Source of the DNA: Escherichia coli
GTDB taxonomy: Bacteria; Pseudomonadota; Gammaproteobacteria; Enterobacterales; Enterobacteriaceae
Assembly: GCF_016903815.1 (NCBI RefSeq)
Contig: NZ_CP069973.1
Strand: one strand, 5' to 3'
Length of the DNA: 64,000 nucleotides
Position numbers and translations under genes: made by a program. Below, one piece after another: positions 19,512 to 47,863 of this stretch. Every line of letters starts with the position of its first letter. Within the stretch, counting starts at the first letter, position 1. The notes under the pieces were generated by a model, which was given only the letters and a program-made list of their open reading frames with translations, did no database searches and was not told the DNA's origin.

Positions 19512-20411
19512 GTGGCGCTACTTATCATCACCACGATTCTGTGGGCCTTCTCCTTTAGCTTTTATGGCGAGTACCTTGCGGGGCACGTCGATAGCTATTT
19601 TGCGGTGCTGGTGCGCGTTGGCCTGGCGGCACTCGTTTTTTTGCCGTTTCTGCGTACCCGTGGCAATAGCCTGAAAACGGTCGGCCTGTATATGCTGGTG
19701 GGCGCGATGCAGCTCGGCGTGATGTATATGCTGAGTTTTCGCGCCTATCTCTACCTGACGGTCTCCGAATTGTTGCTGTTCACCGTACTGACGCCGCTCT
19801 ACATTACGTTGATTTATGACATCATGAGTAAGCGCCGTCTGCGCTGGGGCTATGCTTTTAGCGCCTTGTTGGCGGTGATTGGTGCCGGGATTATTCGCTA
19901 TGATCAGGTCACCGACCACTTCTGGATTGGCCTGCTGCTGGTGCAGCTCTCCAATATCACTTTTGCCATCGGCATGGTGGGTTACAAACGTCTGATGGAA
20001 ACTCGCCCGATGCCGCAGCATAACGCCTTTGCGTGGTTCTATCTTGGCGCGTTCCTGGTGGCGGTGATTGCATGGTTCTTGCTGGGAAATGCGCAGAAAA
20101 TGCCACAAACCACGTTGCAATGGGGCATTCTGGTGTTTCTTGGCGTGGTGGCTTCCGGGATTGGCTACTTTATGTGGAACTACGGCGCAACCCAAGTAGA
20201 CGCCGGAACGCTGGGTATTATGAATAATATGCACGTTCCGGCAGGGCTGCTGGTAAACCTGGCTATCTGGCACCAACAGCCGCACTGGCCAACGTTCATT
20301 ACAGGCGCGCTGGTGATCCTGGCCTCACTGTGGGTGCATCGTAAGTGGGTCGCTCCGCGCTCTTCACAAACGGCAGATGATCGCAGGCGTGATTGCGCGC
20401 TGAGCGAATAA
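19512..20411 (+). CDS. yigM: DMT-family transporter YigM (biotin transporter BioP)
   Basis: 299 aa, ten TM helices, GTG start; 3' end overlaps the 3' end of convergent metR. Confidence 0.8.
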
Positions 20412-21252
20412 ACGCTTCAGTAATCGGCTGACGCTGCTCGCCATCGCGCACGGCGGCGTACAGTCGGCTCCACAAGCCTTCGCCCAGGGTTTTGGTCACC
20501 ACCAGACCCTGGCGCTCAAAACTCTCTACTACCCAATGCGGCAGGGCGGCAATACCCATCCGCGCGGCAACCATCTGAATCAACAATAAGGTGTTATCGA
20601 CGCTTTTCAGTGACGGGCTGACGCCTGCCGGCTGAAGAAAATGCCGCCAGACATCCAGTCGGCTACGCTGCACCGGATAAATCAACAGCGTCTCGCTGGC
20701 GAGATCTTCCGGTGTAATACGCGTTTTTGCCGCCAGCGGATGGTCAGGTGCCAACACCAGACGCACTTCATAATCGAACATCGGCGAATAATGCAGGCCA
20801 CTGCGCGGCAGAATATCTGACGTCATCACCAGATCCAGCTCGCCCTGTTGCAACGCAGGCTGCGGGTCAAACGTCACGCCCGATTTAAAGTCCATCTCGA
20901 CCTGCGGCCAGTTCTTATGGAAATTTTCTAACGCGGGCGTCAGCCACTGAATACAGCTATGGCACTCAATGGCGATGCGCAGACGCGTCTGCTGCGGTTC
21001 ATTGCAGGCTTGCAGTGCCTGGCTAATTTGTGGCAGCACCTGGTTTGCCAGTTGCAACAGGATTTCTCCCTGCGGTGTAAAGCGAAGCGGCTGGCTCTTA
21101 CGCACAAATAGCCGGAAGCCAAGGCGTTGTTCCAGATCGCTAAACTGGTGAGACAGGGCGGATTGCGTCTGATGCAACGTCGCCGCAGCGGCTGCGAGCG
21201 AGCCGCAGTTCCGCAACGCTTGTAGCGTTTTCAGATGTTTTACTTCGATCAT
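20299..21252 (-). CDS. metR: LysR-type transcriptional regulator MetR
   Basis: 317 aa with N-terminal HTH; divergent from metE. Confidence 0.9.
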
Positions 21253-21369
21253 GAAAGTCCTTCACTTCGGCATGAATAATTTGCGCTTGAGGAATATACA
21301 GTAACCGCCAATTATGGATGTGTAAACATCTGGACGGCTAAATACTAAAAATTCCATAAGGGGCATATA

Positions 21370-23631
21370 ATGACAATTCTTAATCACACCCTCGGTTTCC
21401 CTCGCGTTGGCCTGCGTCGCGAGCTGAAAAAAGCGCAAGAGAGTTATTGGGCGGGGAACTCCACGCGTGAAGAACTGCTGGCGGTAGGGCGTGAATTGCG
21501 TGCTCGTCACTGGGATCAACAAAAGCAAGCGGGTATCGACCTGCTGCCGGTGGGCGATTTTGCCTGGTACGATCATGTACTGACCACCAGTCTGCTGCTG
21601 GGTAACGTTCCGGCGCGTCATCAGAACAAAGATGGTTCGGTAGATATCGACACCCTGTTCCGTATTGGTCGTGGACGTGCGCCGACTGGCGAACCTGCGG
21701 CGGCAGCGGAAATGACCAAATGGTTTAATACCAACTATCACTACATGGTGCCGGAATTCGTTAAAGGCCAACAGTTCAAACTGACCTGGACGCAGCTGCT
21801 GGACGAAGTGGACGAGGCGCTGGCGCTGGGCCACAAGGTGAAACCTGTGCTGCTGGGGCCGGTTACCTACCTGTGGCTGGGTAAAGTGAAAGGTGAACAG
21901 TTTGATCGCCTGAGCCTGCTGAACGACATTCTTCCGATTTATCAGCAAGTGCTGGCAGAACTGGCAAAACGCGGCATTGAGTGGGTACAGATTGATGAAC
22001 CCGCGCTGGTACTGGAACTGCCGCAGGCGTGGCTGGACACATACAAACCCGCTTACGACGCGCTCCAGGGACAGGTGAAACTGCTGCTGACCACCTATTT
22101 TGAAGGCGTAACGCCAAATCTCGACACGATTACTGCGCTGCCTGTTCAGGGTCTGCATGTCGATCTTGTACATGGTAAAGATGACGTTGCTGAACTGCAC
22201 AAGCGTCTGCCTTCTGACTGGCTGCTGTCTGCGGGTCTGATCAATGGTCGTAACGTCTGGCGCGCCGATCTTACCGAGAAGTATGCGCAAATTAAGGACA
22301 TTGTCGGCAAACGCGATTTGTGGGTGGCATCTTCCTGCTCACTGCTGCACAGCCCCATCGACCTGAGCGTGGAAACGCGTCTTGATGCAGAAGTGAAAAG
22401 CTGGTTTGCCTTCGCCCTGCAAAAATGTCATGAACTGGCACTGCTGCGCGATGCGCTGAACAGTGGTGACACGGCTGCTCTGGCAGAGTGGAGCGCTCCG
22501 ATTCAGGCGCGTCGTCACTCTACTCGTGTTCATAATCCGGCAGTAGAAAAGCGTCTGGCGGCGATCACCGCCCAGGACAGTCAGCGTGCGAATGTCTATG
22601 AAGTGCGTGCTGAAGCCCAGCGTGCGCGTTTTAAACTGCCCGCGTGGCCGACCACCACGATTGGTTCCTTCCCGCAAACCACGGAGATTCGTACCCTGCG
22701 TCTGGATTTTAAAAAGGGTAATCTCGACGCCAATAACTACCGCACGGGCATTGCGGAACATATCAAGCAGGCCATTGTTGAGCAGGAACGTTTGGGACTG
22801 GATGTGCTGGTACATGGCGAGGCTGAGCGTAATGACATGGTGGAATACTTTGGCGAGCACCTCGACGGTTTTGTCTTTACGCAAAACGGTTGGGTACAGA
22901 GCTACGGTTCACGCTGCGTGAAGCCACCGATTGTTATTGGTGACGTTAGCCGCCCGGCACCGATTACCGTTGAGTGGGCGAAGTATGCGCAATCCCTGAC
23001 TGATAAACCGGTGAAAGGGATGTTGACCGGCCCGGTGACTATTCTCTGCTGGTCGTTCCCGCGTGAAGATGTCAGCCGTGAAACCATCGCCAAACAAATT
23101 GCGCTGGCGCTGCGTGATGAAGTGGCGGACCTGGAAGCCGCTGGAATTGGCATCATCCAGATTGATGAACCGGCACTGCGCGAAGGTTTACCGCTGCGTC
23201 GCGGCGACTGGGATGCCTATCTCCAGTGGGGCGTGGAGGCTTTCCGTATCAACGCCGCCGTGGCGAAAGATGACACACAAATCCACACTCACATGTGTTA
23301 CTGCGAGTTCAACGACATCATGGATTCGATTGCGGCGCTGGACGCAGACGTCATCACCATCGAAACCTCGCGTTCCGACATGGAGTTGCTGGAGTCGTTT
23401 GAAGAGTTTGATTATCCAAATGAAATCGGTCCTGGCGTCTATGACATTCACTCGCCAAACGTACCGAGCGTAGAATGGATTGAAGCCTTGCTGAAGAAAG
23501 CGGCAAAACGCATTCCGGCAGAGCGTCTGTGGGTCAACCCGGACTGTGGCCTGAAAACGCGCGGCTGGCCAGAAACCCGCGCGGCACTGGCGAACATGGT
23601 GCAGGCGGCGCAGAATTTGCGTCGGGGATGA
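21370..23631 (+). CDS. metE: cobalamin-independent methionine synthase
   Basis: 753 aa [22 protein letters not shown]...; matches remembered MetE. Confidence 0.95.
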
Positions 23632-23799
23632 CGAATATTAACGAGTCACTGTAAATTGCAGTACGATAATGGCTTCCAGCACTGGAAGCCATTTTGCATG
23701 AGTGCCAGATTGAAGCTGATCTTCAGGAGCAGAAATAACCGAATCGTTTTTTTCGCAAAACACAGTTTTGAGTGATTCCGTTCAGTAATCAACGCTACG

Positions 23800-24060
23800 T
23801 TATTTATTCTCACGTTGCACGAGATTGTATCCCTTTTCACTAACGTGGTAGTGAGGCATAGACTTATTCCCGCTATCCTCAATAATAACCAAACCTTCGT
23901 TAGCTAATTTGTTAACAATGTTAACAACATTCCCGAATCCTGGAATTTGCCTTATGGATAGTGTGCGATCGAGATTCATCCAGTTCCAGTTTATATCTTT
24001 CTCAGTCATAACGTTCAGCACGTTAAGTTCATTTTTAGTGATCACGATATTCTGTACCAA
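23800..24060 (-). CDS. small winged-helix-like protein, paralogue 2; candidate immunity protein
   Basis: 86 aa; roughly 55-60% identical by eye to the neighbouring 85-aa ORF (shared IPGFGNV..NIV.KL...GLV core); AT-rich island. Confidence 0.55.
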   Translation of the reverse strand: MVQNIVITKNELNVLNVMTEKDINWNWMNLDRTLSIRQIPGFGNVVNIVNKLANEGLVIIEDSGNKSMPHYHVSEKGYNLVQRENK

Positions 24061-24119
24061 AATTGATGAGTATCTTATTGAAAGATCACAATGTAAATCA
24101 TGCTCCTGTAATGGCTGGA

Positions 24120-24377
24120 TCAGAAGAGGTTGTCTTGTTGTTCTTTGATAAGATTCAATCCATATTGAGAAACTCTGTAGCGTGGTCTAGAGTTGCCCTC
24201 ACCATTTACGATATCAACCAACCCATGATTAACCAGCTTTGTTACGATATTCGCTACGTTGCCAAATCCTGGAATATTTCGTATAGCTAAAGTACGATCC
24301 AGCACCATCCAGCTCCAGTCAATATCTTTCTCAGCCATAACTTTCAGCACGTTAAATTCAACTATCGTAATCGTCAT
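24120..24377 (-). CDS. small winged-helix-like protein, paralogue 1; candidate cognate immunity protein
   Basis: 85 aa; start overlaps the stop of the Hcp-extension gene (ATGA), implying translational coupling. Confidence 0.55.
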   Translation of the reverse strand: MTITIVEFNVLKVMAEKDIDWSWMVLDRTLAIRNIPGFGNVANIVTKLVNHGLVDIVNGEGNSRPRYRVSQYGLNLIKEQQDNLF

Positions 24378-25507
24378 TTTGTTGCATCCGGATGAAATAA
24401 GTCAGTATCTTTAATTTTAAAGTCTTCTAGAGTTGCAGTATGTACATTATTCCATAATTCATATCCATCTAAACCTTTCGGTTCACCTGTTTCCCATCCT
24501 AAATTACAATAACGCTGATACTCGCGACATTCATGAGTATAGTAGTTCAGATCGTATTTTTCAGGAAGCAATTCTTTATTTGCTATTTTCTTTAGCCTTG
24601 AAATCATTACATCATTAGCTGGATCATGATCAAATCTGGAGATATGCTTTTCAACAATAGCGATACCTTCCCTGTTGATTGTTACGCCATCTATCGTCAG
24701 GTTTTCAATTGGACCACCGGCAAGGTCGGGATTAAATGGTCTTCCTGATACTGCTCCTCTGGCTCCGAAATGCTCAAGTGATTCCAAATCAGGGAATCTC
24801 ATTCTTCCCAGAACAACTCCAGCAACTATTGAAGCACCAGCGATGAGTAACCCTTTGTTATCCATAACTTGATCGTAACCAGCAGGTGCATCTCCTCCCA
24901 ACTTGTTTGCTGTTTCCCTGAATCCTTCGATATTCCCATTGTATATGCCGCCAGCAGCAAGCAGTCTGCCAACCGCTTTACTATTGAGTGTTTTGAGGCC
25001 ATTATCATCTTTAGTTTTTGGCCGTGGTATAAACAGACGGTTGTAGTTATCGGGAAATGCCAAATAACTAAATTCAGTATTAGCAATCAGATGCCTGGAG
25101 AGTATATATTCATAACTGACAGTGATGGTTTCTGTATCCAGATTGTTCTCAGTAAACAGGTGATTGATTGCTGATAAGAGCGCGCCGCGAAGTTGAATGT
25201 TGTAATATTTCTCCCATCGACCAAATCTATTGATCCGATAGAAGTCAAACTCCATGAACAACTGCTCGTTATTGTTAATAGCGTTAATAAGTAACGGGGA
25301 GCTTTTGTCAATCAATTTACAGAAACTAAGGCCATGCAATTGTGACCCTTTGCCTGTATTCGTAATACTATTAGAGAGCGAGAACGCGAAGATTTCATCT
25401 TCATGGCCAATCTGCCAGCGATTACCTATTGATGCGCTCGTTCCACAACGAGAGGAAATACATCCTTGTTGTTCTCCGGTTATGTTCAGGTAAATAATAT
25501 CACTCAT
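24374..25507 (-). CDS. Hcp (T6SS tube protein) fused to a C-terminal extension: candidate 'extended Hcp' toxin
   Basis: 377 aa; N-terminal ~150 aa aligns by eye to Hcp (IYLNITGEQQG ~ IKGESKD; FCKLIDKSSPLL ~ FTKYIDKSTPNL; FYRIN ~ WYKIN); ~220-aa extension with a Gly/Ala-rich hydrophobic stretch and an unassigned C-terminal domain. Confidence 0.75.
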   Translation of the reverse strand: MSDIIYLNITGEQQGCISSRCGTSASIGNRWQIGHEDEIFAFSLSNSITNTGKGSQLHGLSFCKLIDKSSPLLINAINNNEQLFMEFDFYRINRFGRWEKYYNIQLRGALLSAINHLFTENNLDTETITVSYEYILSRHLIANTEFSYLAFPDNYNRLFIPRPKTKDDNGLKTLNSKAVGRLLAAGGIYNGNIEGFRETANKLGGDAPAGYDQVMDNKGLLIAGASIVAGVVLGRMRFPDLESLEHFGARGAVSGRPFNPDLAGGPIENLTIDGVTINREGIAIVEKHISRFDHDPANDVMISRLKKIANKELLPEKYDLNYYTHECREYQRYCNLGWETGEPKGLDGYELWNNVHTATLEDFKIKDTDLFHPDATK

Positions 25508-25898
25508 CCTTGAAAAACCTTTTGTTAATTCTTTTGTGAAAGAAAAATAGTATTGTTATTTTTTACCTTTATTTACGCCTAAAAGGGATGAACTAAAATG
25601 TGAAAAACAAAATGTTTCACTTTAATATCTTTTTATCAGGAAGGTCTGAGATAATTTATAATTAATGTGAATGTGTTGATAATAATTAATGTTTGTTTGA
25701 GAATGGGAGTTGATGGTAAATCTCTAAGGTGTCTGCCAGTGAAGAGACTCACTTATGACTATTACTTGCCGACTTTCTTAAGGTCAAATAGCGGAGTCGT
25801 GCTCTCCAATCAATTCATACTGATTATTTTTTGGGGGACAGAGATGGCAGCAAAACGCACTCGTTCACTCACCATCTCAAATATAGACTAAGAGGAAA

Positions 25899-26711
25899 CT
25901 AATTCCGCTTCCCACCATACTGCTTAAACCACTCCAGCATACGCTGCCAGCCATCTTTCGCAGATTCGGCATGATAGCTCGGGCGATAATCGGCGTTGAA
26001 TGCATGCCCGGCATCCGGGTAGACGATAATCTCTGCTTTCGCATTAGCAGCCCGCAGCGCCTGGCGCATGGTTTCAACGCTCTCCTGCGGAATGCTGTTA
26101 TCCTGACCACCATATAAGCCGAGAACCGGCGCGTTAAGATCGGTTGCGATATCAACAGGTTGTTTCGGTGAATTCAGCGACTTATCGCCTGTCAGTTTGC
26201 CGTACCATGCCACCGCCGCTTTCAGTTGCGGGTTATGCGCAGCATACAGCCAGGTGATACGTCCACCCCAGCAGAATCCGGTGATCATTAAACGATGAAC
26301 ATCGCCGCCGTTGCGGGAAGCCCAACTGGCGACATGATCGAGATCGGCCAGCACCTGCGAGTCAGGCACTTTTGCTACCAGACCGCTAAGCAACGTGGGG
26401 ATATCGGCAAAATCATTCGGATCGCCTTCGCGGAAGTAAAGTTCAGGTGCAATAGCCAGATACCCCTCCAGCGCCAGACGGCGACAAATGTCGCGGATAT
26501 GTTCATGCACGCCAAAAATATCCTGCACTACAATGACCACTGGCAGTGGGCCATCGCTCTGCTTTGGTCTGGCATGGTAAGCAGGCATGTTATCCCCTTG
26601 TGAAGGGATAGAGGTGAAGCCCGCCACAATCGCGTCGTCCGGAGTCTGAACGATGGTCGAAGCGAGAGGCGATGCAGCAGGTGCAAATCCAGATTGTTGT
26701 GTTGTTGCCAT
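25899..26711 (-). CDS. ysgA: dienelactone hydrolase-family protein YsgA
   Basis: 271 aa from ATG at 26711 (MATTQQSGFAPAAS...); track ORF extends upstream in frame. Confidence 0.85.
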   Translation of the reverse strand: MATTQQSGFAPAASPLASTIVQTPDDAIVAGFTSIPSQGDNMPAYHARPKQSDGPLPVVIVVQDIFGVHEHIRDICRRLALEGYLAIAPELYFREGDPNDFADIPTLLSGLVAKVPDSQVLADLDHVASWASRNGGDVHRLMITGFCWGGRITWLYAAHNPQLKAAVAWYGKLTGDKSLNSPKQPVDIATDLNAPVLGLYGGQDNSIPQESVETMRQALRAANAKAEIIVYPDAGHAFNADYRPSYHAESAKDGWQRMLEWFKQYGGKRN

Positions 26712-37068: not shown

Positions 37069-37770
37069 ATGACAACCTTAAGCTGTAAAGTGACCTCGGT
37101 AGAAGCTATCACGGATACCGTATATCGTGTCCGCATCGTGCCAGACGCGGCCTTTTCTTTTCGTGCTGGTCAGTATTTGATGGTAGTGATGGATGAGCGT
37201 GACAAACGTCCGTTCTCAATGGCTTCGACGCCGGATGAAAAAGGTTTCATCGAGCTGCATATTGGCGCTTCTGAAATCAACCTTTACGCGAAAGCAGTCA
37301 TGGACCGCATTCTTAAAGATCATCAAATCGTGGTCGATATTCCGCACGGTGAGGCATGGCTGCGCGATGATGAAGAACGTCCAATGATTCTCATCGCGGG
37401 CGGCACCGGGTTCTCTTATGCGCGCTCGATTTTGCTGACGGCGCTGGCGCGTAACCCAAACCGTGATATCACCATTTACTGGGGCGGGCGTGAAGAGCAG
37501 CATCTTTATGATCTCTCCGAGCTTGAGGCGCTTTCGCTTAAGCACCCTGGTCTGCAAGTGGTGCCGGTGGTTGAACAACCGGAAGCGGGCTGGCGTGGGC
37601 GTACTGGCACTGTGTTAACGGCGGTATTGCAGGATCACGGTACGCTGGCAGAGCATGATATCTATATTGCCGGACGTTTTGAGATGGCGAAAATTGCCCG
37701 TGACCTGTTTTGCAGTGAGCGTAATGCGCGGGAAGATCGCCTGTTTGGCGATGCGTTTGCATTTATCTGA
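37069..37770 (+). CDS. fre: NAD(P)H-flavin reductase Fre
   Basis: 233 aa from ATG at 37069 ([16 protein letters not shown]...). Confidence 0.9.
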
Positions 37771-47679: not shown

Positions 47680-47863
47680 TCTCTGTAGTGATTAAATAAA
47701 AAATACTTCAGAGTGTACCTGCAAAGGTTCACTGCGAAGTTTTGCTCTTTAAAAATCTGGATCAAGCTGAAAATTGAAACACTGAACAATGAAAGTTGTT
47801 CGTGAGTCTCTCAAATTTTCGCAACACGATGATGAATCGAAAGAAACATCTTCGGGTTGTGAG

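Follow-up and report, generated by a model that had tools for sequence, protein, structure and literature searches.

The metR-metE Locus

The stretch of DNA analysed here (the window, 64,000 nucleotides of Escherichia coli) contains the divergent genes metR and metE, which are separated by a spacer of 117 bp (21253-21369). The features of the locus are collected in Table 1. The product of metR carries the Pfam domains HTH_1 and LysR_substrate, i.e., the helix-turn-helix and substrate-binding domains, and metE is 96.9% identical to its K-12 counterpart in a gapless alignment. A junction query of 321 bp matched 5425 of the 5426 complete E. coli genomes, in which the two genes were always annotated as metR and metE; one of these, E. 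coli strain 7/2 in RefSeq, is 100% identical across the query. An earlier note on this DNA had described 21250-21369 as the divergent control region of metR and metE. The RefSeq annotation of the 100% identical strain and the LysR domains of the metR product bear out the naming of the flanking genes, and the span corresponds to the metR start codon together with the entire spacer.

Table 1. Positions of genes and of observed or predicted regulatory features in the window.
Feature	Position	Strand	Description and basis
metR CDS	20299..21252	-	317 aa LysR-type regulator; ORF list, RefSeq annotation of identical strain, Pfam
MetR site 1 (distal, high-affinity recognition, predicted)	21251..21265	.	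ATGAAAGTCCTTCAC; palindrome, conservation, position
MetR site 2 (proximal, low-affinity activation, putative)	21272..21286	.	ATGAATAATTTGCGC; adjoins metE -35
metE promoter (inferred)	21288..21315	+	-35 TTGAGG 21288-21293, 16-nt spacer, -10 AATTAT 21310-21315
metR promoter (putative)	21299..21327	-	-35 TTTACA (complement 21322-21327), 17-nt spacer, -10 TACTGT (complement 21299-21304)
MetJ operator (predicted)	21316..21339	.	three tandem 8-bp metboxes, GGATGTGT, AAACATCT and GGACGGCT; matrix score, K-12 identity
metE 5' leader, short allele	21321..21369	+	about 49 nt; Shine-Dalgarno AAGGGG 21358-21363, 6 nt before ATG
Position of the K-12-type ERIC element	21340..21347	.	element of about 120 bp there in K-12, absent here; pairwise alignment
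metE CDS	21370..23631	+	753 aa cobalamin-independent methionine synthase; ORF list, RefSeq annotation

Two comparisons were used to judge the spacer. One is the alignment with E. coli K-12 MG1655, which the earlier note had proposed as a check. Positions 21200-21343 are identical to MG1655 save for one base, and since this base lies inside metR, both the MetR and the MetJ motifs are conserved. The alignment thus holds to the left of 21343, but to the right of this position there is no simple alignment, as an ERIC repeat occupies that place in K-12. The other comparison covers metR loci from 80 Enterobacteriaceae species with a MetR identity of 90-100%. The segment that begins with the metR start codon and includes the third metbox (21250-21342) could be aligned without a gap in all 80 species, and only five out of 100 third-codon positions of metR were invariant in the same set.

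Taken together with the sites described below, the region is very probably the control region that metR and metE share as a divergent pair, as in K-12 and Salmonella, with the binding of both regulators being predicted from the sequence. Such a control region with MetR and MetJ sites is already known and ordinary.

Two observations were made on the neighbourhood of these genes. On the metR side, bioP (yigM), on the plus strand, converges with metR, on the minus strand, and their 3' ends overlap by 113 bp at 20299-20411, which is the same in K-12. On the metE side, a 2.3-kb segment (23628-25907) that is absent from K-12 lies between metE and ysgA, the next gene in K-12. A protein of 377 aa encoded in this segment has an Hcp/TssD domain at its N terminus (residues 6-135), to which a long C-terminal extension is joined, and its gene is followed by two small ORFs of 85 and 86 aa, neither of which has a match in Pfam. 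Judged by these predicted products, the segment resembles an orphan Hcp-toxin of type VI secretion, with candidate immunity genes.

Predicted MetR Sites

The consensus for MetR binding is ATGAA-N5-TTCAT (PMC4239095). The string TGAAAGTCCTTCA, which conforms to TGAA-N5-TTCA, is found at 21252-21264 just as the earlier note had placed it, and it is the sole exact copy in the window. The label of a half-site that was given to it has to be dropped, since TGAA-N5-TTCA is the whole palindromic site. The overlap with the metR start is likewise real: CAT at 21250-21252, which reads ATG on the other strand, shares 1 nt with the 13-mer and 2 nt with the 15-mer. Extended to 15 bp, site 1 matches nine of the ten consensus positions. 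A second candidate, site 2, matches seven of ten, which alone is not significant, and its role as a MetR site is therefore putative.

The number of motifs in the window has no significance by itself. One exact TGAA-N5-TTCA was seen versus 1.3 expected, with at least one copy in 77 of 100 shuffles, and two 15-mers with nine out of ten matches were seen versus 2.8 expected. One 9/10 MetR-like 15-mer is located at 47789-47803, inside the spacer of an rRNA operon, and looks like a chance occurrence. The exact motif is expected by chance only about 0.002-0.005 times inside the 117-bp spacer. The motif carries weight because it lies within the metR-metE spacer and is almost totally conserved across species: 14 of the 15 columns of site 1 are invariant in the 80 species, the N5 spacer included. 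For site 2, this applies to ten of the 15 columns.

Phylogenetic footprinting has placed two MetR sites in E. coli, the better conserved IR1 with its centre at -63 relative to the metE start and IR2 with its centre at -41, and their spacing falls one base short of that in the wider alignment (PMC5002191). In the window, the centres of the two palindromes are at 21258 and 21279. Their spacing of 21 bp fits both the published -63/-41 geometry and the remark on the shorter spacing, the distances being counted from the inferred metE start. The assignment to MetR is thus in agreement with the published consensus as well as with the published placement of two sites (PMC4239095, PMC5002191). Judged by secondary sources, sites 1 and 2 probably correspond to the footprinted MetR sites.

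Site 1 also overlaps the Shine-Dalgarno sequence of metR, GAAGGA (complement of 21258-21263), and its invariance, including that of the N5 spacer, is partly due to this element and the start codon. It can be argued further that 21252-21264 is conserved only as the translation-initiation region of metR and that the functional MetR site is 21272-21286 or lies elsewhere. The overlap itself is in keeping with this view, as is the invariant N5 spacer, which is not required by MetR recognition alone. However, the outer ATGAA/TTCA bases fall partly outside the Shine-Dalgarno sequence and the ATG, yet they are invariant too. Although chance alone would give about one TGAA-N5-TTCA in 64 kb, no string in the spacer other than 21252-21264 matches the published palindrome perfectly. 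This string is centred some 63 nt upstream of the inferred metE start, which is about the distance at which LysR-type recognition sites are normally found, and the Salmonella footprints and point mutants reportedly map to a TGAA-N5-TTCA palindrome at a comparable distance. The better-conserved site of E. coli is put at this very distance (PMC5002191). A role restricted to metR translation is therefore considered very unlikely, and 21251-21265 is retained as the predicted recognition site of MetR.

Predicted MetJ Operator

A MetJ matrix was made from 26 other K-12 metboxes (PMC3228920, Table S1), leaving out those of metE/metR. With this matrix, the array at 21316-21339 scored 20.47 bits and ranked first among 63,977 positions in the window. 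The three abutting 8-bp boxes resemble AGACGTCT and contribute 4.4, 9.1 and 6.9 bits. The 8-mers flanking the array score below zero by the MetJ matrix, and the array therefore consists of exactly three boxes. The earlier note had seen tandem Met boxes near 21330. These belong to the predicted MetJ operator, but their number had to be corrected from two to three, starting at 21316; acatctggacggct at 21326-39 is the end of box 2 followed by box 3.

The 24-mer is identical, letter for letter, to the published K-12 metE/metR site, which comprises three boxes and scores 21.08 bits (Augustus & Spicer 2011, PMC3228920 Table S1). This supports the assignment to MetJ. Across the 80 species, 16 of the 24 columns are invariant, and a survey of free-living Enterobacteriales found metboxes at metE and metR in 122 of 122 species (PMC3228920). 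The next-best three-box string in the window, at 37656-37679, reaches 15.5 bits. This is within about two standard deviations of the maximum in random sequence, and the string looks like a product of chance.

The metboxes overlap the inferred metE start and the putative -35 of metR, so that promoter constraint contributes to their conservation. The reading that the motifs arose by chance and are conserved only as core elements of two overlapping promoters, with neither MetJ nor MetR binding, is nevertheless extremely improbable, as none of 1000 random 64-kb sequences reached 20.47 bits (mean maximum 11.6, sd 2.25), this score lies within the range of 16-31 bits of proven K-12 operators, and both the identity with the published K-12 site and the 122 surveyed species speak against it (PMC3228920). 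The array is accordingly treated as a predicted MetJ operator.

Proposed Promoters and Regulation

Both hexamers of the inferred metE promoter, TTGAGG and AATTAT, are nearly invariant across the 80 species. They are weak, with four of six matches in the -35 and four of six in the -10, which fits dependence on an activator. Counting from the published -63/-41 positions, the metE start would lie near 21320-21322; the centres of the two 15-mers point to 21320-21321, 5-6 nt past AATTAT. The hexamers of metR are proposed with low confidence: together with a start near 21293, they are suggested by the sequence and by two invariant blocks, ACAGTA and GTGTAAACATC. A promoter scan called neither the metE nor the metR promoter, and the metR candidate was below the threshold. 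The sole match of the scan, ATGAAA-18-AATAAT on the plus strand (21251-21280), was rejected, as it falls within the MetR sites and nothing else supports it. No RNA family was found in the spacer by an Rfam scan at the gathering threshold.

In the LysR-type layout, a recognition site is located near -65 and an activation site near -40, where it touches a weak -35. Following this layout, MetR with homocysteine as co-activator would bind the strong palindrome at 21251-21265 and the weaker site at 21272-21286 beside the metE -35. Bound MetR may then recruit RNA polymerase for transcription of metE from near 21321. The same bound MetR would repress metR, because both MetR sites sit just downstream of the metR start. 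MetJ with S-adenosylmethionine is expected to bind the metboxes at 21316-21339, so that both genes would be off when methionine is plentiful; one operator could repress both because its boxes overlie the inferred metE start as well as the putative -35 of metR. The roles given here to MetR and MetJ follow the model published for E. coli and Salmonella (PMC3228920, PMC5002191). In this strain, the metE mRNA would begin with a short unstructured leader that contains a ribosome-binding site of its own, in place of the ERIC-containing leader of K-12.

The metE Leader and Its Two Forms

The window and K-12 part company just beyond the operator. The spacer is 236 bp long in K-12 versus 117 bp here, and from the right of 21343 onwards K-12 has about 120 extra bases. 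The extra segment is a dispersed repeat that occurs at a median of eight places per E. coli genome, and its core sequence marks it as an ERIC (IRU) element. ERIC/IRU elements are imperfect palindromes of about 127 bp in transcribed intergenic regions of enterobacteria; the name and the consensus reportedly come from Hulton in 1991 and from Sharples and Lloyd in 1990. No ERIC-like sequence was found anywhere in the 64-kb window, including the stretch that separates the third metbox from the ribosome-binding site of metE. This short-leader allele had been missed by the earlier note, as had the leftmost metbox and the second MetR site.

The K-12 leader, which contains the ERIC element, is about 168 nt long. 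In predicted folds, it forms a long hairpin (-42.5 kcal/mol for 198 nt), whereas the leader of the window is essentially unstructured (-5.6 kcal/mol for 79 nt). The ribosome-binding region differs as well, with AAGGGGCATATA-ATG here versus TAGAGGAAGAAAAA-ATG in K-12, and metE codons 3-4 show three synonymous differences between the two. The idea that the short and long alleles sit on an old diverged haplotype in E. coli was considered and rejected, since the SNP density between the window and K-12 shows no peak at the indel and only the background of 3%. Across a CTAAAT direct repeat, there is a weak similarity of the short leader to the right arm of ERIC (p about 0.015), which hints that the short leader may have originated by deletion.

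Both forms are common in E. coli. The short junction was present in 3324 of the 5426 complete genomes (~61%), and the K-12 ERIC copy was found in about 2100 (~39%). Some variation exists within the short form. In about 168 short-allele genomes, a 5-bp tandem duplication, CATAT, sets the Shine-Dalgarno sequence further apart from the ATG of metE and lengthens the spacing from 6 to 11 nt. E. coli YZ3E2001 (L084 160-173, corresponding to window 21364-21369) has this duplication and also a C-to-T change in metbox 3.

The same dimorphism extends across genera. A short spacer (114-123 bp) was found in 39 of the 80 Enterobacteriaceae species and a long one (186-262 bp) in 41, with an ERIC element at the same position; the dimorphic segment is 21340-21369 in the window and L001 1403-1539 in K-12. 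Escherichia, Citrobacter, Enterobacter, Kluyvera and Pluralibacter each include both forms, and at least 14 changes of leader state have to be placed on a neighbour-joining tree of metR from the 80 species. In one species (L044), the ERIC element is partly deleted, and deletions therefore do occur. The long alleles keep their hairpin, with 28 consensus pairs of which ten show compensatory double changes. The mean identity of leaders between species is 0.63-0.69, about that of third-codon positions. There is thus no general excess conservation of leaders over third-codon positions, only some identical pairs. E. coli and Citrobacter sp. wls619, for example, have the same long leader (100% identity), although their flanking genes are only 80-86% identical. 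Such identical leaders across genera suggest that leaders may have been exchanged.

It is conceivable that the two forms represent a functional polymorphism, a short, unstructured leader with its own ribosome-binding site versus a conserved ERIC hairpin with a different one, and not neutral turnover of a repeat. On the sequences compared, this is considered unlikely. If the polymorphism were maintained by selection or repeatedly exchanged between enterobacterial genera, it could bring about different levels of MetE translation or mRNA stability under the same MetR/MetJ switch. The dimorphism is a modest side observation. Its practical side is that annotation or modelling based on the coordinates of the K-12 metE leader, i.e., the distance from the operator to the start codon, the ribosome-binding site and the ERIC hairpin, will be wrong for the ~61% of complete E. 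coli genomes with the short form, the present one among them. A natural pair of metE leader alleles also offers a cheap case for asking whether an ERIC repeat alters expression, because MetE is a very highly expressed enzyme (PMC3228920).

Comparison with Known Systems

The metR-metE pair is a textbook case of a LysR-type activator and MetJ sharing one divergent promoter and carries little weight as a discovery. The closest known system is the b3828-b3829 spacer of E. coli K-12. K-12 and the window do not differ over the 94 bp that begin with the metR start codon and take in the third metbox, and they share the three-box MetJ operator and both MetR-like palindromes at their 21-bp spacing. K-12 differs in its longer spacer, the ERIC element in the metE leader, the synonymous changes in codons 3-4 and another ribosome-binding site (TAGAGGAAGAAAAAATG versus AAGGGGCATATAATG in the window).

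In Salmonella typhimurium, studied by Urbanowski, Wu and Stauffer, the promoters are divergent and overlap, two MetR palindromes of unequal affinity lie in tandem, and one operator serves both genes, as summarised in PMC5002191. The Salmonella loci of the 80-species set (L052 and L059) share a conserved core of 90 bp with the window. Salmonella differs in having a long leader, with a spacer of 248 bp and another ERIC subtype.

More generally, the arrangement is that of a LysR-type divergent promoter such as gcvA-gcvB. As there, the regulator and its target are transcribed divergently. Counted from the inferred metE start, the strong palindrome would be centred near -63 and the weak one, which touches the -35, near -41, and the same sites would account for autorepression. 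The locus departs from the generic LysR-type system in having two palindromes instead of three and in sharing its control region with an unrelated repressor, MetJ.
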